Both the position numbers and the translations under genes were made by a program. A stretch of 44,268 nt of DNA, filler included, from Sphacelaria rigidula (Eukaryota): assembly GCA_964200075.2 (NCBI GenBank). It is 2 parts of 2 records of this genome, joined end to end, with 100 filler letters (N's around TTAATTAATTAA, not from the genome) between each part and the next. Parts side by side here need not be neighbours in the genome. Positions count along the whole stretch, not along the records: positions 22,186 to 44,268 come from CAXNAA020000356.1; 1 more part is not named here. One strand, given 5' to 3'. Shown piece after piece: positions 4,841 to 43,950 of the stretch. The notes below the pieces were generated by a model. It did not search any database. It saw nothing but the letters and a program-made list of their open reading frames with translations, and was not told the origin of the DNA. The stretch's first letter is position 1, and each line of letters starts with the position of its first letter.

Positions 4841-7800
4841 AGTGGCGCCGCGACAACAGCGGGATAAAAGCAACCGCGGATTGCACATCTGGCCTTGGTG
4901 ACCAGTGAAAGGTGAGAAAGGTTCTCTTCAGTACATGATAATATGCCGTTCCTTGTCAGTAGGTGCATCTGATAGACCGCGTGGAAGATGTGTTCTTGAT
5001 TCTCTCATATCTAGTAGGGTCGTTTACCGCATAACGAGGCAATCGGAGCTTTCGTGGATGCTACTTGCTGCCATTCTACTCGTCTGGTAACATGCAGCAT
5101 CATGAACGAGACACGTGCGACTCGACGCTAACATGAAGTGTATCTCCTCCACCAGGTGGTGTGCAGTGCTCAGCATGGGGAGCGAGTGACGAAGAGATAA
5201 CTGACCCTCAAGAATTTTCCTGGTCTGTGCCAAGAGCTCATCGTCGCTGTTATCTGATGGAGTTGACGCGTATACCCGGCAGTACACGAAATTTAGTTGA
5301 AAGTGCTCCGATTCAAGGAATGTTGGCATACAATCACAACCCGTGTACGACAGGGGGGTTGGGTGGGTGGAGGGGGGGGGTTGAGGCGGATTACACACGT
5401 AGGGGCGAACAGCGTGTTCAAGGAAGTCCAACCAGGCCGCTTGTCTAGGTAGTATGGTGAAGAAAAAATAGAAGTGGATAATTTTGACAATGTTCGTTTT
5501 GGGCGGCTTATGCGGACTACAGTAGAAGCTTCGCGTCTTATTGGCAGCTGGCGAAGGGATGTAACATCTTCCATGTGTGGACGAGTGCAGGATCAGCAGT
5601 CGCTCTGTCGTGTTGTGCATGCCATCTGACCGAGTAAAGGTCCCATACTATTCACCCGTGTGAGACTCGAAGAGTGTACCAAACACCGGTCAATGAAAGA
5701 GCCTGACGTTACATTTACACCAAAATATACACTTGACGTTTTCGCGAGATTGAGAGAATATCGCTGATTGCAAGTGGGTTTATCATTCCCTTTAAGTTGG
5801 CCATTTTTCCATCCCATGTGTGTGTTTATTTGCCTGTTATCACTGGCATGTGCCGAAAGCTACACGTCGATATCCTACGCGGGGATATCAGGGACTTTAG
5901 CGGTAAGCTACTCCAGAAAGCATATCGGGCCTCGTGGAGGGACATTTCGGAACTGAAACGATCCATTTACAAATTGAACGCTTTTCACTCCCAATCGTAT
6001 CCTCTGCCCTCAATCTCACGAAAACGCTGTTACTTGCCCATGACTTGAGAGAGATGGATACGACCAACGTCGGACATGCTTTGCTATATCCTGCCAAACA
6101 TTGGATCATGCTGAAACGTCTCACTGCTGCACTTACGCTACTTGCGTAATGTTGGGTGCTTTCGCTGGGTACACTGCGTTGGTTCACACTACAGGTTGGT
6201 CCCACTACTGGGAGAAATGAGGTGCCTCCGGGGTGAAGAACCCGAGCAGCAGGCAACGTTAGCACGTGAAAGTACCACGGTTCGGACGAATCATCGCCGG
6301 TTCGAATCACCAATTCCACAATTTTTCAGGCCTAATTCCTCGGAAGAGATAGGAATGTCGACGGCTGGCCGAAAAGGTCTCCACACAATTTTTACGCGCT
6401 TCCACGTGCCTAGGCTGCGAGCGCCTGGTTTGCAACGCTGAAAACAAAGCCTTGGGATCGCTTCGTACGGTACGAATCAATGACACTATCAAGTCATTTC
6501 CAGATGAATCATTGATTCGTCCGACCGTTGGAAAGTACGCTTCCTGCTGTACGCCCAATCTTCCCGGAGCCCGTCGCTCGGCCTAATGATTGTCCGGGCA
6601 CTCGTCATTTCCCACGATGCCTTCATATCTGATACGATCCTGTCGCAGCATTCAGGGGACGGATTGATACAAGGACGAACATGACTGAGTTCCTCCTCGA
6701 TTGGAGGCAAGTCGACTATTTTTTCTCTGCGACCCAGTCACACGGAACCCACCTTCAGGAAAAGAGACGGAGTAATGATATCCTTGAACTGCTCGGTGCT
6801 CATTCGTCTTCAAAATTCAGATCCTGTCGAAAATAGAGTGAGGAATTTCCGAAGACACTCTTGCCCTGAGTAACGAACACTCAAGATTCCAATCTCTCTT
6901 TGAAAATGGGATGTTTATTTGTATTGTCGTCCAACAGAGATCACAGATATATCCCCGCGTGTCATGAAACAATCTGCACCTACGAGATTCCCTTGCCGGC
7001 CGCTATTTTAGGGAGTGAATTATCTTCGATGACGTATGCACAGAAAGAAATATCCATCACCGCAAACCCTGCCTCATTTTACTTTCACAATTTTGAGTCG
7101 AACCTAATCGATGCCCATACTTGAAGAATTGTACGGTGACCGCGGTGCATAGGGATGTGTCAAACATATATGCACCAGGATTTCCCCCCGGGGTCTACGT
7201 CGAAACTGCCATCGACTAATGCCGAGATAGCCCCCCCACAAAAAGTGCACCGGCACCATCCAACGAACCGGCTGCGATCCCACTATTGGACTCGTTTGCA
7301 GTAATTTCTCCCACATGAGAGGCGTGTAGCAGTCCGGAATCAGCTATAACGCCCAAATCAGTCGCATCGTGGAGCACGAAACCAGCCCTAACGGCAGTTA
7401 TTATCATCGCCTCCGTGCACGTTTTTGGCCGGTTTGGGGGGGGGGGCTATCTCGGCAGCAGTCCATCGCGCCGTAAGATTTCAGCACCAGTCTTTCCACG
7501 CTACACTGAACAGGCGAGAAAGGCGAAGAATGTGCGTGGTGGGTGGATGTGCACGGTAAAATGAATATGAGAATGTGAACACTCCACACCGAGAACAAGT
7601 ATCTCTGTACCCTTCATCAACGATAGAAGCTACATTTAGTCGTCAGGTATGCAGACGTTACGAATATCCAGTTTTGATACGCACAGCTCCGGGAGAAATT
7701 AACCACAAGCGTGCAGCCAACGCGAGATCTGCTGCACGGCATATGCCTACTGCGAGTTTTGTCATGGTCATTTGTTCTACACCCTGATTACAGTATCCAC

Positions 7801-11010: not shown

Positions 11011-11222
11011 TTTCACGTGGCTGTGGCGCGCTTCCTCGCAGTGCACCGTTTGTAGCAGAGTGAGACTATTGTCACGAGAAATCTTGACAGGTTGAGTAGA
11101 TGACAGACCTGCGTGGGGCGCTGCATCGCCGTGCTTTTTTTTGTTCTTCAGATGCCATCCGCTTGCTTGGTGTACAGCTCAATCTGAACCTTCTCTCTGA
11201 AATTCAGTCCTGAGCCCCAACG
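11011..11222 (-). mobile_element. Second copy of copia PBS plus 5' leader beyond the 3' LTR (truncated tandem element)
   Basis: Aligns to 15267-15478 including ctgagcccca. Confidence 0.7.
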
Positions 11223-11375
11223 TGAGAGCTTACAATGTCAAACTGGGTACAGTAGTGGTTCCCGAACCGTTCCTGTTGGTACCTCGTACTGAATCGTACT
11301 GGCTCCTACCAGGCTGATTGACTACACGCGCGAGAATGCATGTATGAGATCTATGTTCAATACATAATCTGCACA
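11223..11375 (-). repeat. 3' LTR of copia element (TG...CA); PPT GGGGGAG at 11382-11376
   Basis: Homologous to 15479-15663; TG/CA ends; directly preceded on the minus strand by a polypurine tract. Confidence 0.8.
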
Positions 11376-14300
11376 CTCCCCCATGATCTCACAGCGGTAG
11401 CACTGTAATAGAAAGCTGATACAATCACACCCAACGTGCTAGAACATGATTCACGAACTCGACAACATATAACATCTTAACCCGCTTAGTTACGATGTCT
11501 GCGCGCTGCTTGGCGCTCGTTTGTACGCATCGCACGGTGAAGAGCTTCTTCTCGACGTATTGCCATGAACATTTCAGCTTTATATTCACGAGTCTCGTGC
11601 GCCCGTTGAACCTGGTGACTGTAGCCGCCTGGACGGCGCCACGATTGTCGCAAAACCACAGGGTGGTGTCCTATGGAAGTCCCATCTCTTCCAGAATGCC
11701 CCGAATGAAAATGTAATGACGCATACACTGTACCATGGCCGTCCATTCCGCTTCTGGAGAAGAAAGAATGACGGAGGTCTGTAGTTTGGATCGCCACACT
11801 ATCGGAGACTTGTTCATTAGCAAGAGGTAGCCCGTGACGCTCCTGCGTGTTTCGGCATCGTTTGCCCAGTCCGAGTCCGCATAGCCCACCAGTGTCTTCT
11901 GGGTCTTTACGATGCCCATACCATACTGTAGGCAGACGTCAAGCGTACCAGCTAGGTAGCGGAGAACGAGTTGTAGTCCTTGCCAGTGTCACAGGCAGGG
12001 AGAGGCAGCCCGGCGCCCTAGCTCTCGAACACCGTTGGAGAGATCAGGTCGTGTCATTTCTGCGAGGAACATTAATTTTCGAGAATCCTTGCGTACGGGA
12101 ACTGGGAGGTGTCCAGCTCCTCTTCACGTACTTTCCGCTCTGACAGGTCCATACTCGGGTCGAGGGGAGATAGGTTTTCCACACTTGTGTCGAGCCCATT
12201 CCTTCGACGACGATGCTCTCGGCATAGGCGAGTTCGTGTATTTCGCCAAGAGGCATGTCTGCATATGCTGAACCTCTTAGGTGTTGTCACCGGAGAACAG
12301 GACGTCATTCATGTAGGCCATCAGGACAGCGACGCGCCCACCTTTGGCCTGAAGGTGGTAAAGGTATTCGTCGTGGTGGCTGTTGAGCCAGTCTTCGGTG
12401 AGTATCGTGCTCCTCAATTCCTTGAAGCATTGTACGGCGGACTGCTTTAAGTCACAAAGGGCCTTGTCCGCCTTGAACACTCCCTTGTCGGGCAGCTCTA
12501 GCTAGACGTCCTCCAGGAGCGACACATTTAGGTATGCCTGCGTGAAACCCAGCATTCCAGTCCCCCATTCGTGCAGAGCGGCTGTCCCTAGAATGGTGCA
12601 CATGACGTCGAAGCCTACGATCGGGTTAAACGTCTCGGAGAAGTCGATTCACTTGCGCTGAGTGAACCCGCGAGCCACGAGTCGGGCCTTACATCTCTCT
12701 ACTGCTCCGTCGGCCGTGCGCTTGATCTCGTATACGAACCGCGTCTTGACTGGAATCTTATCGCGCGGTAGAGATTCGTTGGTGAACGTCCCCTGATCCC
12801 AGAGACTTTCAATTCCATCGTCTGTGGCCAGTTTCCATCTGTCTGCATCGGGCCCTGCCAGGGCTTCTGTCGCGGTCGACGGTTCTTCTGGTCATTTGGC
12901 GATTTCGCCTACTAATCCGAGCATGCAGAGTGCATCTTCGTCATGATCTTTCAGAAGGGCGACGACAAAATTTCCGTCGTCGGAACTGCTGTCGTCAGAA
13001 CTCCTGAAGCGTTGTTGTGTGTTATCCCCCCGACGCCATTGCGCGAGTCTACTGCACCTGCGCAGTTTACTATCCGAAGGAGAGCACTTCGATGATGTCG
13101 GGTCTTGTGGTGGCTGTCCACCCGGGCCGTCGTCGCGGTTGATTGGTGCTGTTTTCTCCTCTTCCGACGTTTCGCGCTCTCTATCACTCAGCTCGACGGC
13201 CTTCAACTCCCCTACGATGTCTAGAATATTGGCCTCTGATTCGAACGTAATGTGTGAAGACTTCATTAGCTTGAATTTCTGCATTCGCCATACATACCAG
13301 CAGAGCGAGTGCCGATCGTGCCACACCAAGGTACCCCGCTTCGCATATGGGTGAAACTTTAGAGCGGCGCCGCGCTGTTGCTTGTGCTGGTGCATGAAAC
13401 ACTCGGATTTCGAAGCACGGAGCCGATTGTAGTTGAACGGCTTCCTTGTCAGCCTCTCACATGGGGTCTCGCCCTTGAGGTACTCGTGGGGCATCCCTGC
13501 GGTCTTGTATGCCGCGTCCGCTACAGCGAAGAACCAGTAGTCCTCTCCGCGTCCCACTTTCACCTGTTGGCTGCGTACTATCCTCATCAGTTGGTGAATT
13601 GCACGTTCAGCAATTCTATTAAACTGCGGCGTTCTTGGCGGTGAGCAGCGCCACCTGATGCCGCGATTCACCAGCATGCGTTGAAATTTGACCGATCGTC
13701 CAAGTTCCCCAGCGTTGTCTCCACCGACGCATTTGATGGCCACTCCCTCACGGGCCATTTCGTCGATGCAGGCTCCCGTGGCGTCAGTGGTAGCATCTCG
13801 TGTCTTGAGAGTCCAACAACGTGCTTGTCTCGACTAGCTTCGTCCACGAAAACCTGGAAATATTTCATACCCGTGACATCGGCGTGGAAAGGCCCTTCAA
13901 GGTCAGTGTGCACGGCTTCACCTGGTGCTTTGGCACTCCTGCCGCCGCGGCCGTATCTGAGCGCCTCGCACTTGCATTCCCTGCAGACGCTACAGTGTAT
14001 TTCGGACACCACCGTGTTATCAGTTACATCGATCAGCACACGCTTCTCGAGGTGTTTCATGGCAGCCGGATCGGTGTGTCCTAAGGTGTCGTACCATTTC
14101 CTCAACGTGAGGCGTGGCTTCTTATTTGCGTACGAAGAGTGCGTCGACGCCGCATGTTTGCCATTCCCCCGCACGGATGCCGACAGGGTCAGGAACCCTT
14201 CATTTTCGGCTAGGGGGATCTTCGGTCTATCCTCTCTGAACCGAAGGCAGCTCTCCTTCCTGCCAGAGTCCACGAATTCTCCTCGGTGACACCGAATCGT

Positions 14301-15478
14301 TCCCGTGCTCAACAGCCAGCAAGGTAGTCCAAGGACCCGAAGTTCGTCCTTCAGTGTGACCTTTGCCGGAGCCTTCTTGTCCTGAGCGCTGAGGTGTAAT
14401 GGGATCTCCCCCGTTGCCAGCGCCTACAGCTGCCCCTTGTTCCTAAATGTACAGCTTCGATTCACCGTACGCGTATTTCTGATATCCTCTTCCCAGGGAG
14501 TCATGTTGAAATCTCTGTTGAGCCCCGGGTCGGCTTTGATACCGTCGGTTTTCGATTGGAACGTTACTGCCTCGTCACGGCATTCTATGTCGGACGTTAG
14601 GTATGTTGATGATGCTACGACTGTCTGTTGTAGTCTGTCGTACGTTACACCTAGCTGGGTTGTTAGCTGGATGAATACTTGTAGAAGCGCCTCCTTGATC
14701 CCGAGTAAAAGGGCTGCCCTCTTAGTCTCGTCGGCTTTGGCGTTACCACGCGCTTCGAATTCCCCCCAGATGGTGTCCAGCTTCACCAAAAAATGCTGAT
14801 TCCTCTGCAGAGTTGCATTGGAGATCCCGCAATCTTCTTTCCAAGCAAGCAAGTAGTTGCACAGGCCGCCCGTCCTGTGCACGTCCTCCGTAGATCCGTT
14901 CCAGCTCCAGCAAGGCTTCCCTACCGTCGGGGTTGCCACCGTGCTCGAATCGTGCGGCAATGGCTGCGGCTGACCCTTTCGTAGTCTGTGCCAGAAGGAA
15001 CCACAAGGATTGCGTATTGCGTTGGTATGTTTCGTACGCCCTACGTCGGTCTAGTGTTACGGTCGCTGTCGGAAAGCCCGGTGTGGCGTAGTCCGATCGC
15101 AGCAGAGGGTATCGTCCCTTTCCCCCTGCGTATCCCACGATGGCGAGTCTCCATGCATCCCATGTTTCCCCGTCAGTGTCCACCAGCGCCCGTCCAGTTC
15201 GGCAGCTTGAGTGGGTCTGCCTACATACTCTTCGAGGCTCACGAACCTTCGCACATGTGAGATGTGGTTTACGTGGTCGTGGCGCTCTTCCTCGCAGTGC
15301 ACCGTTTATAGCGGAGTAAGATTATTGTCACGAGCAATCTTGATGGGTTGAGCTAATGACAGACCTGCGTGGGGCGCTACATCGCCGTGCTTTTATCGTT
15401 TCTTCAGATGTCACCCGCTTGCTTGGTGTACAGCTCAATCTGAACCTTCTCTCTAAATCTCAGCCCTGAGCCCCAACT

Positions 15479-15663
15479 TTAGAGCTTACAATATAGAGCC
15501 ACGGAGCCGTTCTGGCTCGGGTGAATCACACTGGCTACAATACGGGTTCTCGGACCGTTCCTGTTGGTATCTCGTACTAAACCGTACTGGCTAATACCAG
15601 GCTGGTTGACTACATGCGCGAGAATGTACGTATGAGATATATGTCCAATACATAATATACACA
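15479..15663 (-). repeat. 5' LTR of copia element followed by PBS-like TGGGGCTCAG (~15475-15466)
   Basis: Homologous to 11223-11375 with a ~32-bp insertion; the TGG-starting motif lies 3 nt inside and resembles a tRNA-Pro-type PBS (TGGGGGCTC). Confidence 0.75.
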
Positions 15664-22085: not shown

Positions 22086-22185
22086 NNNNNNNNNNNNNNN
22101 NNNNNNNNNNNNNNNNNNNNNNNNNNNNNTTAATTAATTAANNNNNNNNNNNNNNNNNNNNNNNNNNNNNNNNNNNNNNNNNNNN
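22086..22185. other. Artificial scaffold gap/linker: 44 N + TTAATTAATTAA + 44 N
   Basis: A six-frame stop linker centred in an exactly 100-bp spacer. Confidence 0.9.
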
Positions 22186-24375: not shown

Positions 24376-24630
24376 GAGTGATTCTACGGTAGGGGTGCAT
24401 AAATATTTTTGAGGTTAGAAGTGTTAGGAGCCCTCTACCTCATCCAAAACACTACTGACAAAATAAGTGAGAGTACGCCAGGATTACTATTTCAATGTGC
24501 TAGGACTGTCCCGAATGAATTTGCAAACGGGGATGCCCTGGCCCATGTTCTAGTGCGTCTGGAATCGTTGGGAGCCCCTGAACTAGACAAGATTTTGCGA
24601 ACAAAGTGCACCCGTACCGTAGCATTGCTC
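24376..24630 (+). mobile_element. MITE with ~24-bp TIRs (GAG...CTC) and 4-bp TSD ATCC; Sola2-like
   Basis: GAGTGATTCTACGGTAGGGGTGCA ... TGCACCCGTACCGTAGCATTGCTC, flanked by atcc on both sides. Confidence 0.85.
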
Positions 24631-24751
24631 ATCCTGAACCCTCCCAGAAACGCCCGTCTATTTGGCATCCAAGTAGGGGCCCAAGCGTTTCAAGCGTTGG
24701 TTAACGATTTAAGTGTAGAGATTGGGAGGGGGGTGGGGGCAGCGCGCTCGG

Positions 24752-24932
24752 GAGTGGTGCTACGGAGAGGGTGCAAAAATATATTTCGAGGTTCGAATGG
24801 TTGGAAGCCCTTTATCTCATCCAAGAGACGATAAACGCGATATGTCAGAGCACGCCACGATCAGTATTCCAATGGGCAAGGGATACCCCGAATGACGTTG
24901 AAAATGGGAATGTCCCTACCGTATCATGACTC
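24752..24932 (+). mobile_element. Diverged, internally deleted third copy of the same MITE family
   Basis: GAGTGGTGCTACGGAGAGGGTGCA ... CCCTACCGTATCATGACTC; interior aligns to copy 1; no TSD retained. Confidence 0.65.
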
Positions 24933-25806
24933 TTGCAGTGTCCCTGTGTCGACCTATTACTTCCGGAAAACGATCGCCCGCAGTGGTTTGTTTCCAACAA
25001 AGCCACATATATATGTTTAACGACGAGTGGCGATTTCTTGACTCAAGGAAGACGGTGGCTATAGGCGAAGTCGAAGTCTCGTTGGAAAATGACGAGCTGT
25101 CGGTGGCACCGCCCGCACCCCAGGCTGAAGATGAAAATGAGGTCATCCACCACGTGTCTCGAGCGTTGCGAGCCGCCGGCGGAACGCGTTGGCACCCACC
25201 CGAGTAAAGCGTCGATCCGGAGCTTCGACTGTGTGCGCACCACAGACCTTCACTGATCGATCGCGTCATTGACTGTCGAACATGCTCTACAGATAGATAC
25301 TTCACCAACGATAGAAGCAACACGGCACGAATCTCTACCCTCTTATCCAATTTCAACTCCGCACACACGCCCCACCCCCAGAAAAAAATGATCCCAAAAC
25401 AAATAAACGAATATTTCGGCCAACTCTCACCCCGTAATATCGTTGAACAAAAAACATTCACGGCGAAGTCGATGACTAGGTAAACTAAACCCCCTGATGC
25501 AATGAGCGCCAGAATGTTGGAGGTGTCTCTATTAGGAGTAGGAACGGTGCTCCGTCTNNNNNNATAGTCTCGAAAGGGATGCGTGGTCAATGGTCAAATG
25601 ACTAAGGCAAGCAACAAATGAGTACGCCCCCCCCTGATGCTCGTGCATTGCCGCCCGCAACTTCTATTCATCTGGCTTCACAATCTACGCCTAAACTCTC
25701 TCTCTCTATACAGGAAACACAGGAAGACAGGAACCTCACACTAAATCTCCCGCATACAACACCTTCCCGAGAAAAGTACCCCAGGATATCAAGTGAACAC
25801 ATAGTA

Positions 25807-26064
25807 GAGCAATGCTACGGTAGGGGTGCACTTTGTTCGCGAAATCTTGTCTGGTTCAGGGGCTCCCAACGATTCCAGATGCACAAGAATATGGGCCAGG
25901 GCATCCCCATTCGCAAATTCATTCGGGACAATCCTAGCACATTGGAATAGTAATCCTGGCGTACGCTCACTTGTTTCGTAAGTCGTGTTTTGGATGAGGT
26001 AGAGGGCCCTTCCAACAGTTCTAACCTCAGAAAATATTTGTGCACCACTATCGTAGCACCACTC
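25807..26064 (-). mobile_element. MITE copy 2 (inverted relative to copy 1), 4-bp TSD AGTA; Sola2-like
   Basis: Reverse complement of 24376-24630; agta at 25803-25806 and 26065-26068. Confidence 0.85.
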
Positions 26065-33163: not shown

Positions 33164-33939
33164 TTAGAACGTCATCTCTTCCTTGACAAATGATTTGCTT
33201 GGAGTAGAACCACAGACGGGGGAGGCCGCAGGCATGCAGTCATCTGTCAACAGCGACAGGAATCCATCGCCGCTTACATCAGCATCGCCATCGCCGGAGA
33301 GAATATCCATAAGTAGATCATCGCAGGCCGCCTCATCATCCTTATCGAAAATGACGACGTGCTGCTGCTCGTCTTGGGCGCCATGCGGGAAAGTAGTATC
33401 TAGGTCGTCGGTCATAAACGGCGGCATTTCCGAGGAAGTCGAACATTCTTCGGTAGTCGTGGAACATGACGTGTATCCGCAGTCTGCCTTGCAGCTGGAA
33501 ACGCTCTCCTCAACATGAGCATAGAAATCCACCGGAGACTGGTCATCATTTTCTTGCATCTCCATCTTGACGAGGCTCGATCGGATGAGCGGTTGAGGTT
33601 GTTTCGTTTGTTCGAGGGTGGGGGGGAAGGATTCCGGTGTGCGAAGCGCATCTGACGCACGAATTGTACGATCTCTCGACACCCTAGGGGCGCGGGGATT
33701 GAATTTCCGAGCGTAGGGCTTGTCGGTCTTAGCAGCGACTAGCTGGTCATCAACGGCTGAAAGTCTCGCTTTTTTGGAGGTGGAGATACAAGTGGGAGAA
33801 CGAGACGACGGAAGGGTAGCGGGATGGGTCATGTTGACCGCTGACGGGTTGTTGGTTTTGTTCCCGCAGGGTGAACGGAAGCCGTTGGTGTTGTCGGTTT
33901 GCGCATGAACGCGGTGACTGTGAGCTGTCGTCTCCACAG
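33164..33939 (-). CDS. bZIP (HAC1/XBP1/bZIP60-like) transcription factor, C-terminal segment translated only after splicing; acidic activation-like domain
   Basis: Long open frame ending ...DDEAACDDLLMDILSGDGDADVSGDGFLSLLTDD...EEMTF*; in frame with the bZIP exon after removal of 34202-33940. Confidence 0.75.
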
Positions 33940-34202
33940 CAGGGAGACTAGTTAAAGTTGGCGTACGAATCACCGTCCATTAACGGACGGCCAACGATGC
34001 CTTAAACGACCTGTTGTTCAAGACGGTCGACTCGGAGCTTTGCCGGCTACCCCCCCCGCCCCCCGCCCTCTCTCGCATCCTCACAAACGCCTTTCCGCTC
34101 AGAAAGACTGAACAGGTGCGGTACAGAGAGGGGGAAAGGATGGGGGGAAGTAGAGGCTTAGACTCCTTCATCTGACCATTTGAACCCGGTCTGCGAATGC
34201 TG
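33940..34202 (-). other. Putative IRE1-type unconventional intron (263 nt)
   Basis: Bounded by GCGAGU-CAG|CAGC-AUUCGC and GUCUCC-CUG|CUGU-GGAGAC hairpins; the excision product is in frame; the interior is self-complementary. Confidence 0.75.
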
Positions 34203-34503
34203 CTGACTCGCGAGAGTTTAAACAGTTCACTGATCCGCCACCGTGCCCTGCGCGTCCCTTCAACGTTGGGTCCCGACTCGCTTCCCTTTTCCTTCCATTT
34301 CCTCCCGATCTCGTCCCACTGCCGGCGCTTCTGCTCGAACCTGGACCTACTCGCCCACCTCCCGACGACGAGACTCTTGGTCTCCCGTCACCACCCCTAC
34401 TGCTCCCGCCACACTGCTGTTGAGCCTGTTGAAGGGTGTCCGATTGCTCGTATCTCAAAAGTCGCTGCCTTAGGTTATCATTCTCCTGATTTAGGCGCGC
34501 CAC
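34168..34503 (-). CDS. bZIP factor exon 3: leucine zipper plus Gly/Ser linker (unspliced form stops at 34168; spliced form leaves after 34203)
   Basis: tccag|GTG; VARLNQENDNLRQRL continues the heptads from exon 2; ends ...NSRESAAFADRVQMVR*. Confidence 0.85.
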   Translation of the reverse strand: MARLNQENDNLRQRLLRYEQSDTLQQAQQQCGGSSRGGDGRPRVSSSGGGRVGPGSSRSAGSGTRSGGNGRKREASRDPTLKGRAGHGGGSVNCLNSRESAAFADRVQMVR

Positions 34504-36144
34504 CTGGAGTCAAAGAAGAGGAAAAAGCAAGCCGGGAATGCACAGGGGGTTGGTTTATTTTGGGGATCGCCATCAAGTCGTTTATTAACGTCGGTCCTGA
34601 CATATTAGTCGTACTGAACAACTGGACCCTCAAAAATGTGACACCCACTCCTCAGGTCTGTGACGATTTCGTCCTGGAAATAGACGACCCTGTCATCTAC
34701 ATATCATTTGGCAATCCTAATCGCGATTCTACTGCCTCCCACTCCACACAAAACATGCAAAATGAACTCTCGGAAGCTGTTGCTTTTGCCAGAGTCATCA
34801 GTGCAACTACCAGAGTGGCACAGGCCCCAGCCAATAGCAATCTCTGATGACGTGAGACGGTCATGCGCAGGTGGCGAGGAATCCGCTCAGAGCACGAATA
34901 ACATTTTTTTCTCGTGTACTTCAATGACTGAGTGATGCATCCCATCTGGCAGTTTTGGGGGTTCAGTGAGTCCCTCATACCGGTACCCGACAGTGGTGCA
35001 CGAGGTGTCCGAACTATTCGCCCTTGCTCTGGACACGGGTATACCCATGCAGAAATACCCAGTTGCGGGTAAGGATTTCTGTACAACCTCCATATCGTCT
35101 CCGACAGGTTCTCCGACGTTCCTCGACAACATGCAGGTAACCGACAGTTACGTACGTTGTGAGATAGCCTTATACCCCACTGAGCATACCCGTACCCTCC
35201 ACAACATCGTTCGTTTCGTACACTCTAGTAGCAACCTCTTGCTAATACTCCAGCTCATGCGAATAAAATCAGTGAGAGACAACATTTGACCCTCACCACA
35301 AAAATTTGGCAAGAAGAGCAGTCTCGTGACCAAATTCGGTGGGGGGGGGGGCGAATGCAACAAGAAGCGGCGGAATCGTGCAAAATACGACCTGAGAGGT
35401 CCACGTCATTCATAGTTCTCAATGATTCATGATTCTCTTGATTCCGCATTTCTGTCCTGGCCACCAACAAAATCGAAGATGTTGACTACACTTCTTCAGC
35501 GTGGATATGCGGCAGAGGAACATGAAAGGAAACTCCACCTCTTTTGGAACACCCCGCCAGACGCCACTCGTTCACAAAGACCCCACACAGTTCATTATCA
35601 TTTACCACCACAACCCTGCAACATAAAGCAGGAACTGATCACGGGAATATATACGGCGGGGTGGTATGTGGTATGTGGCAGTACCGCTCAGATGTCAAGC
35701 GACACTAACAGTTTATAGATTTCTACGATGCAACCCTGCGAGAAAGTGTTCCACGTCGCTCGACATCCAAGCGGTTTTGCCACGTACCATCCCGGAGGCA
35801 GTGTATCCTCTGGTTGCACCAGCACATGGTGCGGGCGAAGCCACAGCAACTTCCGGCGTCAGCGCTACAGTCGCCCGCTGTCATGATTAGAAATAGACCA
35901 CGGACTGGTGAACTAAATATGATGACAAAATAGTGTGTTCGCCAACCCGCTCGGACTGAAACCTGGTGAAACGAGCAAATTCAATCACCAATTCTTCTCC
36001 TTAACTCAATTTCTCCCGAAAAGACACCCCCTCAGCTTCTCACGCGTCGACTGTTGAAACTATGATCGGTTGCTCTGACCACTGAGCTCGTCAAGTCGTT
36101 ATTTTCTCTCAAGCACGTCATTTGTCGACAGCGCGTGGCTTTAA

Positions 36145-36240
36145 CCCTTAGACCGCGAGGTTAGTCTTCTGTCGAATCGGCATCAATTTCGAGTGAAAAA
36201 GTAGGCATGATCCAGAAAGACTAATCTCGCGGTCTAAGGG
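36145..36240. mobile_element. piggyBac-type MITE (96 bp) inside the bZIP intron
   Basis: ttaa|CCCTTAGACCGCGAGGTTAGTCTT ... AAGACTAATCTCGCGGTCTAAGGG|ttac; CCC/GGG ends and TTAA-like target. Confidence 0.8.
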
Positions 36241-36849
36241 TTACTCCCGGAACGAGGAGCTCATTTACGATCTTGTAGTTCACCCACGTCCGGAACATGC
36301 TCGACTTTTCGTTCAACACGATGCACCAGTAGGCAATTTCCGAAAATTTCATACGACCGACTTCGTCCATCATGCGGTCCCCATGACAGTCGCGTCTGTC
36401 ATAGCTGACCATCCTTCAGCATCTACTGCCGGCGCCACATTTCCTGTGGCGACGATAAGTAGCGTCCCGGTATTCAGCATGCCCCTGTTCAATGAAGCCC
36501 CCAGCCTCAGTCACCACTGCCCCAACCTCACTCTGACCGCTCCGCCTGTAGCTTCGGCTACGCACTAGCCTAGCTCGTCACCGGCTGCGGCAGCAACGAC
36601 CGCCTCTGACACCCACAGCGTGCTGGAGGCAAAATCTTTGCCGCAAATGTGCCCTGCAGACACACTCAATGTGCGCCCCATATCGCGGTGGCAAAGCGAA
36701 ACCGTTTTCTTTGGACGCCACGGGTCAGACCCCACACCTTGTGATACCGAAGTCGCGGGGTCTGATCCCCGATTTGGGATGGAAGAGTCATGCTTGGCTT
36801 TTGAATACGCCGACATCAAAGGACGTCAATAAGATCATCTTAGAGTGCA

Positions 36850-37160
36850 CGTCGTGGGTCGGGCCCAACGACTTCGTGTGTACACGATATTACAGGGAGG
36901 GGGAGGGCAAAATCCGCGAAGTACACTGCAAGGTGGTCACGCTTGGTGCATGATTACGTCTGGTATCATCATAGCATCAACGCGAACATAGCATCAACGC
37001 GAACATTAATCGGCGTCAGGGCGCGTCCAGTTCGACTGTCTCACCGTGCACATCGTGGGTCAGGCCCAGCGACTTTGTTTGTTCATGAACTTGCTGGGCA
37101 TCATCCGCGAGGTGCACTGTCACGTGGTCACGCTTGGCGCATGATAATGTCTGTCATCAT
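36850..37160 (+). repeat. Diverged direct repeat (~200-bp period) plus a 17-bp tandem duplication
   Basis: tcgtgggtc.ggccca.cgactt...atccgcga.gt.cactg...gtggtcacgcttgg.gcatgat occurs twice; catagcatcaacgcgaa occurs twice near 36970-37005. Confidence 0.6.
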
Positions 37161-37257
37161 GTGGGCTGAGCAAGGGAGTCTTATTGCGCACTACCTTCAC
37201 ACCCGGGAGGTTCGTGTATTGCACTCATGGGGCTTGATGTGCCAAGTGCACGATAGG

Positions 37258-37651
37258 TAGAGGTCGGAAATAGTTTGTCCAACCATTAACCAGTTGAATG
37301 GTTGCGCGTAGCGCACTCACCAACCAGTTATATAGTGCATGATGGTATGGTCATCGGGCGGCGCAGCCGTGGGCCAAAAAGCCCCCCCCAGAGGGGGTTC
37401 GGCCGGAGGCGCCCCCGGAGGGCCCCGCTGGAGGCGCCGTGCCGGAAGCACGTTTGTACGCGATTTGGTTTCACGAGAACAAAAAAAAACGTAAAAATTG
37501 GGCCAATTTTCAAGGGCTGTATGTAGCATACGCAGCCGGTAACGGTAAACCATGGTTTGAAACCATTATCCAAAACTTTCATATGACCATTACCATTGTT
37601 ACCATTATAATGATAATAGCCGAGTATAACTGGTACCATTTCCGAGCTCTA
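37258..37651. mobile_element. hAT-type MITE inside the bZIP intron
   Basis: TIR TAGAGGTCGGAAATAGT / ACCATTTCCGAGCTCTA (15/17 match); perfect 8-bp TSD ACGATAGG (37250-37257, 37652-37659); ACCAT subterminal repeats. Confidence 0.9.
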
Positions 37652-40030
37652 ACGATAGGGCTATTGCGGTTCAGGACCAAGTATTGGAAATGGGAGGTAT
37701 ATTTTTACACAAGACCAACAGTTCCCGATGGTATCGTTGACAACATCACGAGCTAGTTGACCACATGAACGCAATAATATACTCTCAGATTAGAAAGCCA
37801 CCACTGTCAATCCTTGATGCTGATCGACTTTTGCTTTGAACGACGGGAATAAAACGAGCTTGAAATTGATCATGAGAAGACCTCAACAAATGCCGCCATT
37901 ACATATCAGTAACAACCAGCGTGCCGGCAACTTTGTTTTGTCGTTTATGGATACAAATGTGTTACGCGTCGGTTACTGGACTGAGAACAGATTCACCACA
38001 CGCCACACACACGACCAAGCACGAAAGCCGAACCAGGAGTTGCAGCCCTTCGACGTGTGCATGGAGCTATGGAAGTCAAGACATAAAATAAGTACACGGG
38101 GGGGGGGGGCTTGTTTTCCAACACCTCCAACGATCAACATACCGTGGGTTACACTCGATGCACGGAGGATTATCGATATCTACCAGCACCCAATTGCGCA
38201 ATCGATAGGCGGGTTTTGCAACAAAATGCACCCAAATCCGGGATATCGCCGCTTGGCTTCATGAGCGGTCGACTATACTCGAAAGCCGGCGGCCCATTTT
38301 TACATGAGTCTTTCTCCAGTCTTGACGTTACATGGGAAAGTAAAATTTCTTGCTCCTGTTGCTTCTGGTTTAACAAGGTAAGGACGGCGCGTGTCATGTT
38401 GATAGAATTGAGGATCTTGATCGCCCTCTCGGGGCTTACGAGCTAACGAACGACTCCCCTTCCGTCGAACAAAACGCATTGCCAAGTGTTCTTTGCAATG
38501 TGTACAACAGTTGGGCAGGTGGCGCCAGGAAGTAATACCTTCACTCGTGAAACAGTTTCGCAACAATTGCCCCCCCCCCCCTCACTGCCCCGTCTCCATA
38601 GGAATGCGTGGTCAATGGCCAAACGACCGAGGCAGGCAACAGATGAGTACCCCCGCCCTCGCATGATTTCGAAAAAGTATTTCTGCACCTTGGCACCACA
38701 TCCGTTGTTCCGTGCACACCGTTTCGAATGCAGGTCGTAATATAACTGACAACTAAACATGACTCTTGCGTCGTCCAAAGAGTTGAAAGTATCATGACCT
38801 AACGCTTGACACACGATCTTGCGCAAATGATTGCGGCGGATACTTGCCCTCCACAATCGACCAAAAGGTGTCGTGCTCTCAACAGGATATCCTCACTTAT
38901 GTTTTTCGTGCGGCCGAAACAAATCTTCGGAACTAAGAGGAACAGATGAAAAGAGGGGAGATGTCCAAAATGTCACTTCGACGTTTCCAGCGAGGCGGCC
39001 TTTCGGAACGATATAATCGAGTATGGCGGAACGCCGTCAACCCCGACCCTAGACCCGAGCGGTTTCTACACGCTTTGGCACCAACATTTATAGAGGAATC
39101 TTAACCATGCACTTGAAATGCCTGCGGCATGTCGTCCTCACTGGGTTCTGTGAGTACGTCAGCGACTACCAGTCCCCAACAGTCTGGCAGCGGCGATTGT
39201 GAGAAACCACATTGTTGTGATGGTACAGCGAGCCGGGTGAGTAGTCACGATATTTAACGCGAATCGATCTGAGGACTCATACCCGGAAGATCATATTGTA
39301 CAAATGTAGGACCCCATTAGATCGGATTGGGCGGCGTGGTGTAGTTGTGTAGGCAGCAAGGAAGAGGCGCCGAGTTGACGCAGGCAGACACTTCAACAAA
39401 TAATACAAATGTTTCAGGACCCTTTCAACAGACACCCCGCGCTATCCAAGCACCGGCACCACTGTATGCACTACTTTGCTTCGAAGGGCAGCTGTAACGT
39501 GAGGCGCAGAACAGCAGCTGCCTTACAAGGATCCTCAAGAACACGCGACCGAGAGAAACTCGACCTCTGTTGCCGTGAACGTCTTGAAAGCGAGACACAA
39601 AAATTAATAGCCGGTGGGACACTACAGACACAAAAGTATGGAAGGAAAAAATAAACGCACGTACAAGATCAAGATCGACGGTACGACCTCCACAATTTAC
39701 TTGTCTGCAGTGAGAAAATAACCATCACGGGGTATAAATCTCGTCATTGAAGCGCGACACACCAGAGGACTGATACACAACCCTCAAGCGAGTCGACTCA
39801 ACATGCTCGGAAATACGTCAATCGCCGCCACAGTTTGATGCGGTTTCGGTAAACATCTTGGTCATGTATGAAGCCGGCAGGAAGGAAAGTAGGAGAGGGA
39901 GAACAATCGTGTGTGCATGCTGCGTTTAGGGCTCTTGTAGGAGGACCCGTGTTGATCATGCACGCTTTCAAGAGTAATGTGCTAGTTTTTCTGTAAGGAG
40001 TTGTCAGATGGTACTCGAGATAAAACGCAC

Positions 40031-40192
40031 CTCTTGCTCCAGAGATTCGATCCGGTCTCGTTTCCGCTTGCGGCTCAGAGCGGCAGACTCTCGGTTCCGG
40101 ATCATCCTTTGCTGCTTCTTCCATGCTTGCTTCTCCACCCCGTGGGTCGGCGCGTCCTCTCGTGGTGCGAAAGGATCTGGCTTGGCATCTTC
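40031..40192 (-). CDS. bZIP factor exon 2: basic region
   Basis: KKQQRMIRNRESAALSRKRKRDRIESLEQE (N-x7-R bZIP basic motif); GAG|gtgcgt donor; acceptor at 40192 or 40198. Confidence 0.9.
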
Positions 40193-40843
40193 CTGCACCT
40201 CGTTATGAGTAATAAGAAAAAACACGAGCACACATGAGCACGGACGAAGAACAAAATACACGCAAGAAAAGGCGTGGGTTGCAGAGCTGAGTGTGCCTCA
40301 CCAGAAAAAAAAAAAGTGCATCTTTTATGTATTTCACATCATCAGCGGAGGTGGATGGATTGTCAGTTGTATCACATCAGGCGAGACACCAGCGCGATAT
40401 CCCATGACTTGTGAGATCGACAGATTATGGAACGGGGGGCAGCGGGAGGGGGGGGGGGGGGGGGGGGGGCAGGGGAAGGGCAGGGAAAGGGTAGCGGGGG
40501 GGGTTCATTACGGCGTTACCTCTTTCNNNNNNNNNGGGGGGAAGGGAGCGGGGGTTGGGGTGGAGGCGGGGGGGGGCATGGGTGGGGCGGTGGTGGCCTC
40601 CGGGTGTGGGGGAAGGGCAGCGAAAGGGTAGCGGGGGTGGTTCATTACGGCGTTACCTCTTTCAAAGTTAGCCCCACATCAATTCACCGCCTGTTGTGAA
40701 AAAGCTTCAAAAACGCACATTCCAAATTTTTGGTGCACACCAGACTTCAAAGCCAGACAAAACGTGGCGCATTCTTGAAAGACGTATGAATAAAGCAAAC
40801 CTGTCTCTGCCCCGCCTTCAGAAACCCAACCCCACAAACTCAC

Positions 40844-41185
40844 ATCGTCATCCGACTCTTCCGCACTTGAGTACACCTGATTACGCGCGGCGGCCGCGGC
40901 CGCGGCGGCGAGGGCATTCCTACTCCTAGTTTGCTTTAATTTGAGTGCCCTAGAACGCCGTCTCTCCCCGGCTGCCTCGGGAGACATCAGTACCGATTTA
41001 GGTGAAGCTGCTGCCGCCTCGGCCAGGGACCGGAGGGAGTCCATGGAAGGAGACGATGAAGACGAAGCTGTTGGGGATGGTGGCACTTTGTTTTGCTGTT
41101 GGTGCTGCTGTTGTTTGTGCTGCTGCCCGAGGGTACCGGACGCGACTGCTCCAGTGCATTGCGTCTGCATGTCCAGTGGCGGCAT
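40844..41185 (-). CDS. bZIP factor, first coding exon (Q/S/A-rich)
   Basis: ATG 41185 preceded by an in-frame TAA; GAT|gtgagt donor in phase 0 with exon 2. Confidence 0.75.
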
Positions 41186-41949
41186 TTACTTTTGAACGGA
41201 AGCTGTACCGATAGATGAGCAAGTCGCAGGTCACAGTCCTCTTGTACTGTGAACACCTGTCTATTTTGGTATTTGTTCACCAGTGCCACTTTGTACACGC
41301 CCTTCTATGTACAAAATGCCGTGAAACGACGGGATCCAGTTGCAGCGGATACCGCCTGCAACAATGAAACCCCCCTACTGTGTCTCTGTTCCTCTCTATT
41401 CTCCTGCTCTCTTCTCCCCCCTTCCCCCCCGCCCTGCTTGCAGCAAGCACCGCGTTGACACTGAGCGATAGTACCACAACAGTCTTCGTTTTGTGGCTCT
41501 TCGATCTTGGGTAGGAGGCTACCGGTATGCGCCCTGGTCAATGATGACGGGTTCTTGAAGGTGGTGAGTTGAGCTTAAGCTAAAAACGCCAAAATATCAT
41601 AAACGGGGTTGACATTCTTACCGCATGACATATGGTCATACGTTACGGTGCAGTTTTGCCCGGTCTCCGACTGATGCTACAATACATAAATCCGTGTTTT
41701 TTTATCGTTAAATCATTTATTTTAGCAGTCTAGCATGAAAATAAGCATATTCCCTTCGAGTATTGCAGGTTATTATTGCTCTAATAGAATATATGGGGGG
41801 TACGAATCGTCTTTGTCGTGTTTTTTGTGCTGGATCTCATCTTCGATATATCGACCGCGGGTCTGTACAGCTGTATAATTCGGCAACACGCGGGTGACAC
41901 TACTGTATCACGCTGCCGTCTGCGGCACGCGAACATTACATCAAGCAAG

Positions 41950-43609: not shown

Positions 43610-43950
43610 CCCTAGTGAGCTGTGAGAGCTGCATGAGCTACGCTATTTTCACCAGATGAGCTACCAACCCGCAGCTCATCATCGCATAGACTGACTCCCT
43701 GGGTAAGCTGTGAGAGCTACATGAGCCCTGTGTGTTTGTCCTAGATGAACCATGAGAGCTACATGAGCTACGCATGTCTACCCTGGATGAGCTACGAGAG
43801 CTACATGAGCTACGCATGTTTGTTCTAGGTGAGCTACCAACCCGTGGCACATCAGCGCACGTTTCCCCTGGGTGAGCTATCGGGCGTAGCTCACATGTAC
43901 ATGTTTGAGCACAAGTGAGCTACAGCCCGCGGATGAGCTAGCCCACGAGC
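43610..43950. repeat. Minisatellite of ~42-bp GAGCTA-rich units
   Basis: For example ctagatgaaccatgagagctacatgagctacgcatgtctacc followed by ctggatgagctacgagagctacatgagctacgcatgtttgtt. Confidence 0.8.

Follow-up and report, generated by a model that had tools for sequence, protein, structure and literature searches.

IRE1-type splicing has been described for animals, fungi and plants and is apparently absent from early-diverging eukaryotes (PMC12530127, PMC13149111); this and the other statements that we take from the literature refer to the parts of the cited papers that were available. An IRE1 site requires a stable stem and a 7-nucleotide (nt) loop, CNG|CAGN, that is cleaved between bases 3 and 4 (PMC8674358), and the sites of nematode xbp-1 are 7-mer CAGCAGN loops (PMC12530127). 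Here we analysed a 44,268-nt stretch of DNA from the brown alga Sphacelaria rigidula (assembly GCA_964200075.2), called the window below. A three-exon bZIP gene on the minus strand hosts a 263-nt segment, 34202-33940, that is bounded by twin hairpins with 7-nt loops. We assign a probability of roughly 0.6 to the reading that this segment is an IRE1-type intron, of the HAC1/XBP1/bZIP60 class, in an unfolded-protein-response (UPR) bZIP gene, and that its fold is mainly architectural. We infer that IRE1 would be the cutter and that the fold has been selected for juxtaposition of the two sites.

Long IRE1-type introns have been described only in budding yeasts, as far as the available part of PMC6222058 goes. 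HAC1 introns range from 152 to 848 nt across Saccharomycotina, with 252 nt in S. cerevisiae, 379 nt in C. glabrata, 626 nt in C. parapsilosis and as many as 848 nt in the CTG-Ser1 clade (PMC6222058). A preliminary description of the segment had taken most fungal introns to be 20-26 nt long, with S. cerevisiae as the exception; these lengths put that statement out of date. Because long HAC1 introns are known across Saccharomycotina, the length of the present intron alone is not new. Like the long yeast introns, it would be an unconventional intron that greatly exceeds 26 nt and lies in a putative UPR bZIP mRNA, and, as in yeast HAC1, an early stop within the intron yields a truncated protein without the activating C-terminus, which removal of the intron would switch (PMC6222058, PMC6627864). 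It differs in its host, a stramenopile brown alga, so that lengthening would be independent, and in having one dominant self-closed fold-back, whereas the S. cerevisiae intron is noted for pairing with the 5' untranslated region (UTR). The short introns of XBP1, bZIP60 and hacA share with it a pair of stem-loops whose 7-nt loops are cut (here, by prediction) between bases 3 and 4, the outer closing helix and the frameshift upon removal (PMC8674358, PMC12530127, PMC6627864). However, it is about 10 times longer than the introns of XBP1, bZIP60 and filamentous-fungal hacA (~20-29 nt). A full-text literature search found no paper linking IRE1 or unconventional splicing to brown algae or stramenopiles. 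A bZIP phylogeny places the heterokont bZIPs in one group with HAC1, ATF6 and the plant proto-B families, and splicing is unmentioned in the available part of that paper (PMC4736632); a kelp transcriptome lists ERN1/IRE1 (PMC6742357).

Coordinates of the gene, the intron and the parts of the fold refer to the minus (mRNA) strand. Exon 1 (40844-41185), read from the sequence, contains the ATG at 41185-41183 and ends in the donor ...GAT|GTGAGT; its translation is the N-terminus of the NCBI protein CAM9156546.1, with no differences. Exon 2 (40031-40198), which was placed by a motif scan and by alignment to CAM9156546.1, encodes the bZIP basic region, ends in the donor GAG|GTGCGT and contains a Pfam bZIP_1 match (E 5.5e-08, 33.2 bits compared to a cut-off of 27.6). 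In the public model CAM9156546.1 this exon has its acceptor at 40192, 6 nt further on. A conventional GT-AG intron of ~5.5 kb (34504-40030) then divides the bZIP domain into the basic region and the leucine zipper. The zipper opens exon 3 at 34503, and the upstream part of this exon (34203-34503), which was aligned to brown-algal orthologues, encodes the zipper together with a linker rich in Gly, Ser and Arg that reaches to the 5' cleavage site. The putative unconventional intron starts 300 nt after the beginning of exon 3; as expected of an IRE1-class intron, it resides in a bZIP mRNA, downstream of the zipper.

Translation of the unspliced mRNA would yield a product of 281 residues, including an 11-residue intron-encoded tail, that is ended by a UGA at 34168-34170 inside the basal helices of the intron fold. 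The sequence supports a premature stop, 11 codons into the intron. The downstream frame is open from 33979 to 33164, and the downstream part of exon 3 (33164-33939; stop 33166-33164) can be read only once the intron is removed. Removal of the segment (263 nt = 3n+2) merges the two frames into one open 528-residue product, in which the 11-residue tail and its stop are swapped for 258 residues ending in a conserved acidic block (mean identity 0.70 across residues 466-480). This new C-terminus is far longer than that of yeast HAC1, which comprises 18 residues. At least 224 nt must be removed whatever the junction, because the stop at 33982-33980 closes the downstream frame. The joined product matches CAM9156546.1 ('unnamed protein product [Sphacelaria rigidula]') residue for residue except for two junction choices, namely the 6-nt choice at the exon 2 acceptor and the junction at the unconventional intron. 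A 19-residue Kyte-Doolittle scan detected no hydrophobic segment in the unspliced product; the highest mean was 0.52, in agreement with the earlier remark that the unspliced tail contains no transmembrane anchor. In this respect the product differs from bZIP60u, which carries a membrane anchor. It also differs from XBP1u with its hydrophobic patch (PMC4891664). As the unspliced protein has no hydrophobic segment, an XBP1u-style route of the nascent chain to the endoplasmic reticulum (ER) is unlikely.

The putative unconventional intron (33940-34202) is supported by its length, the frame switch and the layout of the open reading frames (ORFs), and each of its boundaries falls in the loop of an IRE1-type hairpin. 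The 5' hairpin (34193-34211) has a 6-bp stem with one G-U pair and a 7-nt loop, CAGCAGC, at 34205-34199, with the cut predicted after G34203. The 3' hairpin (33930-33948) has a 6-bp stem and the loop CUGCUGU at 33942-33936, with the cut predicted after G33940. The geometry of the cut is identical in both loops, CAG|CAGC and CUG|CUGU, i.e. after the third base, and the 5' loop fits the CNG|CAGN consensus exactly. The 3' hairpin was more stable than its shuffles (z -3.1, 4/200). When both strands of the window were scanned (88 kb), 12 hairpins combined a 7-nt CNGCNGN loop with a stem of 4 bp or more. The stem reached 6 bp or more in four of them, compared to 0.97 in composition-shuffled sequence, and two of these four flank the 263-nt segment. 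The preliminary claim of a long unconventional intron is supported by the twin hairpins and frame switch at 34202-33940.

All four of these longer-stemmed hairpins (6 bp or more) fall in the bZIP gene. The remaining two, with loops at 36659-36653 and 36590-36584 in the 5.5-kb intron and on the same strand as the gene, were considered as a second pair of IRE1 sites and rejected. Their 9-bp stems contain 4 and 3 G-U pairs, respectively, and lie 69 nt apart, the local fold at 36584-36659 was no better than shuffled sequence (z -0.71, 50/200), and the minimum-energy fold lacks the second of the two hairpins. This extra pair is probably due to chance.

Structure prediction was carried out on a 341-nt region with both 7-nt loops held open. 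The minimum-energy fold (-147.2 kcal/mol) contains a five-way junction composed of a 16-bp exon-exon stem, the 5' hairpin, a 69-bp fold-back, a hairpin at 34001-33960 and the 3' hairpin. The long imperfect fold-back (34008-34191) comprises 14 helices, with a C-rich arm at 34153-34125 and a G-rich arm at 34073-34047, and its outermost pair is exactly 34191/34008. Its helices include GACC/GGUC, GUUCAA/UUGAAC, GGAG/CUCC and CUAC/GUAG and, further in, a C-tract/G-tract helix with 5 G-U pairs, CCCUCUCU/AGAGAGGG and a CGCAUC-type top. Each pairing that the preliminary description had listed for this inverted repeat was found in the minimum-energy fold. The observation is thus confirmed, although the statement that the intron folds 'almost entirely' back on itself was somewhat generous, since 176 of the 263 intron nucleotides are paired. 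G-U pairs account for 11 of the 82 base pairs.

Folding energy relative to shuffled controls had been set as a test of this structure. A 331-nt region gave -146.5 kcal/mol compared to -115.7 ± 5.8 kcal/mol for dinucleotide shuffles (z -5.29), and none of the 100 shuffles was as good. On the mRNA strand, z-scores were -5.97 for the fold-back alone and -4.36 for the whole intron (0/200 shuffles in each case). We also folded 1306 windows of 263 nt from both strands (mean -72.8, sd 12.0; GC-matched mean -83.0); both of the top two (-118.5 and -115.4) are mRNA-strand windows that overlap the intron. In its tract-free base (34191-34155 with 34044-34008) the fold-back reached -34.2, compared to -15.2 ± 3.2 for shuffles of this base (0/1000), and the fold signal is therefore not due to low complexity alone. 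The same fold also formed when the unspliced mRNA was modelled over 2294 nt. The fold-back was more stable on the mRNA strand (-93.9 kcal/mol) than on the antisense strand (-77.7 kcal/mol); shuffles, i.e. composition, account for about 6.7 of this 16.2 kcal/mol difference.

A second, smaller hairpin had been proposed at 33951-34007. The supported pairs span 34001-33960 with the core GCCGUCC/GGACGGU, and on the mRNA strand the hairpin was better than its shuffles (z -2.90, 1/200), less markedly so than the fold-back. The CCGUCC/GGACGG core of the proposal was retained with a pair probability of 1.0, whereas the probability of the GUUGGC/GCCAAC and GUUUAAG/CUUUAAC helices was 0.03 or less. Accordingly, the full structure as first drawn had an energy of -8.6 kcal/mol compared to -19.0 kcal/mol for the minimum-energy structure. 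The predicted fold agrees with the suggestion that the helices unite both IRE1-type stem-loops at a multi-branch junction and adds to it a closing stem between the exons. The 5' half of this stem (34221-34243) is predicted to pair with the 3' half (33912-33929) through 16 bp in three segments (-18.7 kcal/mol), and only 1 of 143 windows of the downstream ORF was equally good. A study of XBP1 (PMC4687415) reportedly concerns an 'RNA zipper' that promotes intron ejection, which is relevant background for this stem.

These features suggest how the long intron could be handled. The unspliced mRNA would produce the 281-residue bZIP protein without the acidic C-terminus. IRE1 would cut both 7-nt loops between bases 3 and 4, and a ligase would join the exons; removal of the 263 nt would shift the frame and add the 258-residue C-terminus, the acidic end of which resembles an activation domain. 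The intron interior would constitute a self-contained RNA domain, made up of the 69-bp fold-back and the small second hairpin. Together with the exon-exon stem this domain would form the five-way junction that holds the distant cleavage hairpins and the exon ends adjacent to one another, an architecture that would let a long intron be cut twice and ligated. An insert of 263 nt might be tolerable only if it is self-closing, such that the cleavage hairpins and exon ends are kept together.

Comparative evidence came from proteins, with 11 orthologue models aligned. The relatives found for the protein are all brown algae (Ectocarpus spp., Pylaiella, Scytosiphon, Undaria and Discosporangium), and the downstream region of exon 3 gave 12 matches among 1.84 billion representatives. 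At the protein level, both hairpins and the intron ends are kept in other brown algae above the coding background; the residues that the two hairpins encode recur in the Ectocarpus, Pylaiella and Scytosiphon models and in contig ORFs of other brown algae. In the closest relative, 21 of 21 residues before the in-intron stop are identical compared to 53 of 90 in the remaining exon, and 13 of 13 residues after the 3' end of the intron are identical compared to 126 of 271 over the whole frame. At the intron 3' end, which contains the 3' arm of the second hairpin, 9 of 10 residues are identical in a frame that is non-coding here, and the inferred change of A33976 to G in this relative would keep the pair with U33987 by converting U-A to U-G. 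Because of the strand asymmetry and the conserved intron ends, we argue that the fold is kept at the RNA level. A test of the fold with intron peptides back-translated into degenerate bases and compared to codon shuffles had no power: the window's own intron peptide, used as the positive control, failed (z 1.15, 27/200), so that the scores of two relatives (P0041, z 1.4; P0034, z 0.71) are uninformative.

The contig ORFs of other brown algae begin within the intron and run on into the conserved peptide of the 3' hairpin. Two of them are open for 54 and 84 codons upstream of this hairpin without reaching the 5' site, which implies introns longer than ~170 and ~260 nt in those algae. The preliminary description had supposed an independent expansion; such an expansion would indeed be independent of yeast, but these ORFs argue against one that is private to this species. 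Two MMETSP transcripts (P0027 and P0029), which represent distant bZIP relatives, end 10-16 residues after a peptide like that of the 5' hairpin, and judged from these sequences the splice system may extend beyond the brown algae.

The public orthologue models disagree at the junction of the unconventional intron, with at least three solutions or a stop in the intron. Four Ectocarpus models (305-315 residues) end ten residues into the intron with a tail nearly as in S. rigidula. Three Ectocarpales models use a GT...AG pair that is also present here, at 34207 and 33948. The S. rigidula model and one Scytosiphon model place the junction after the intron-encoded residues AAF; in the window, this junction of CAM9156546.1 reads as GC...AG, again of 263 nt but 8 nt downstream, with two residues changed. 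Disagreement of this sort is what an unconventional intron would produce, and, if our reading is true, the conflict between brown-algal models at the junction would be explained, and they could be corrected.

Several observations weigh against an IRE1-type intron with an architectural fold. The 3' loop, CUGCUGU, deviates at position 5 from the mammalian CNGCAGN consensus, and the 5' hairpin taken alone was not better than its shuffles (z -1.43, 16/200). The match to Rfam family RF04247 ('bZIP non canonical Hac1/Xbp1 intron') scored only 18.7 bits against a gathering score of 41 (E 0.86). This model has 72 positions, and no more than the 5' hairpin and the outer helices were aligned to it; a plausible cause of the shortfall is length, as the second hairpin lies ~260 nt away here. 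About one third of the fold-back pairs come from C/G tracts, a tract type common in the window, the exon-exon stem is marginal by shuffling (45/1000 equally good), and the conserved tail could serve a peptide function instead of an RNA structure. Moreover, the literature cited here, in its available parts, shows an architectural role for no long HAC1 intron. Finally, two in-frame splice-site pairs are at hand, GT(34207)...AG(33948) with 260 nt and the annotated GC...AG with 263 nt, and the segment might be a conventional spliceosomal intron whose sites are weak or non-canonical and to which the hairpins and the fold are incidental. Every such alternative preserves the frame, CAM9156546.1 links both ORFs by an intron of equal length, and the GT...AG pair is the one chosen in the three Ectocarpales models. 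We nevertheless consider a spliceosomal intron highly improbable. The candidate donors, GUCAGC and GCAGAC, are unlike the conventional donors of the bZIP gene, GUGAGU and GUGCGU, and the public models conflict with one another, 4 of the 11 simply stopping in the intron. It would also leave the twin consensus-loop hairpins, their shared cut geometry and their brown-algal conservation unexplained, and a motif similar to the 5' site precedes a short tail in the two MMETSP transcripts. The products of the IRE1-type, GC-AG and GT-AG junctions differ in sequence at the join. Another explanation keeps the IRE1-type intron but treats its interior as neutral filler, i.e. an old palindromic insert like a miniature inverted-repeat transposable element (MITE), or C/G tracts grown by slippage, that was tolerated only because its self-pairing leaves the two cleavage hairpins unseparated. 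The antisense strand of the fold-back also beat its shuffles (z -3.87), as expected of an inverted repeat at the DNA level, and the window has further C/G tracts and fold-backs that carry them (e.g. 7208-7469 and 40436-40586). In yeast, the intron length varies widely with no functional consequence mentioned as known in the available part of PMC6222058. What makes an unselected fold unlikely in our view is the strand asymmetry of 16 kcal/mol, the 11 G-U pairs and the absence of A-C oppositions from the 1x1 mismatches as read from the predicted structure, along with intron ends that exceed the coding sequence in conservation in the closest relative and mixed-sequence basal helices that none of the 1000 shuffles equalled. 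A MITE origin, which the preliminary description had raised, finds a parallel in the imperfect inverted repeat of 184 nt, which can fold on both strands. However, a sensitive blastn search of 33900-34250 against the 44-kb window returned no second copy, only homopolymer-tract matches, and no target-site duplication was read in the flanks of 34191 and 34008 (34192/34007). Also unlike in a MITE, pairing is biased by its many G-U pairs toward the mRNA strand, the arms are ~75% paired, and other brown algae have conserved the tail encoded by the 5' arm. The suggestion is thus not supported as stated. An old element could have lost its target-site duplication, and, as C/G-tract fold-backs exist elsewhere in the window, an old repeat might be the source.

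Yeast HAC1 is kept silent by base pairing of its intron with the 5' UTR (PMC4891664, PMC6627864), and translational attenuation of this type would give the fold-back a different role. The C-rich arm would pair with a leader tract and block scanning until splicing relieves the block. A G/purine-rich tract 215-250 nt upstream of the ATG (41399-41438) is a candidate partner: its duplex with the C-rich arm has an energy of -48.4 kcal/mol, close to the -49.7 kcal/mol for the intron's own G-rich arm, and among 4399 windows of the minus strand it was the best non-self partner. An unspliced product without a hydrophobic ER-targeting segment is also compatible with attenuation. On the other hand, three plus-strand tracts paired better with the C-rich arm than this leader tract did (17600 windows), so such tracts are common in the window. 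Pairing of the whole 300-nt leader with the intron was no better than in controls, since 27% of the windows used as controls were as good, as were 73.5% of the shuffles, and the minimum-energy fold of the mRNA model contained no leader-intron pairing; the C-rich arm was paired with its own G-rich arm and the leader tract elsewhere. The leader-pairing segment of fungi is, moreover, conserved only among close yeast relatives (PMC6627864). We therefore treat HAC1-like attenuation as a lead at most and regard it as very unlikely. More speculative still is a reading in which the long self-folded IRE1 intron goes back to the ancestor of the brown algae, HAC1-style logic was thus invented a second time and independently, and the fold-back is a switch and not a spacer. 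The C-rich arm would either pair with the G-rich arm and present the hairpins to IRE1 or pair with the leader tract at 41438-41399 and silence translation, and this switch would replace the hydrophobic-peptide ER targeting of XBP1u and bZIP60u. We see little chance that this reading as a whole is true. The reading that we prefer, an IRE1-type intron with a mainly architectural fold, would make the long structured intron of brown algae a natural replicate for asking why such introns lengthen and how they stay spliceable.

The remaining features of the window were recorded separately. Rfam at the gathering threshold gave no matches in the whole window, and a tRNA scan of the window gave no genes. 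Weak Rfam matches to microRNA precursors and small nucleolar RNAs over the fold-back (9.7-16.9 bits compared to gathering scores of 42-100) were rejected, as they reflect hairpin shape only. Within the bZIP gene, the 5.5-kb intron (34504-40030) includes strongly folding stretches at 36367-36827 and 35575-35903 on the minus strand and a near-perfect 27-nt inverted repeat at 36142-36243. Intron 1 contains a run of N within 40434-40663, between two 93-nt direct repeats that are G-rich on the plus strand; another run of N lies at ~22086-22185. The fold-back at 7208-7469 has 37-nt arms that are separated by 188 nt and each carry a C- or G-tract. On both strands (-109.6 and -105.6 kcal/mol) it ranks with the best-folding windows, and it resembles the unconventional intron in its tracts only.

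A long terminal repeat (LTR) retrotransposon occupies 11012-15663. Its direct repeats of 225 and 138 nt are 86-88% identical, lie ~4.26-4.29 kb apart and enclose minus-strand ORFs, one of which (12892-13833) matches the retroviral-polymerase SH3-like domain PF25597 (E 7.6e-07). Two inverted repeats of 201 nt with 93% complementarity, separated by 1176 nt, lie at 24430-26007 and resemble a DNA transposon or large fold-back element; further inverted matches (24752-24807 with 26009-26064) occur nearby. A tandem array at 43616-43860 has a period of ~42 nt, with 3-4 copies that are 69-89% identical.

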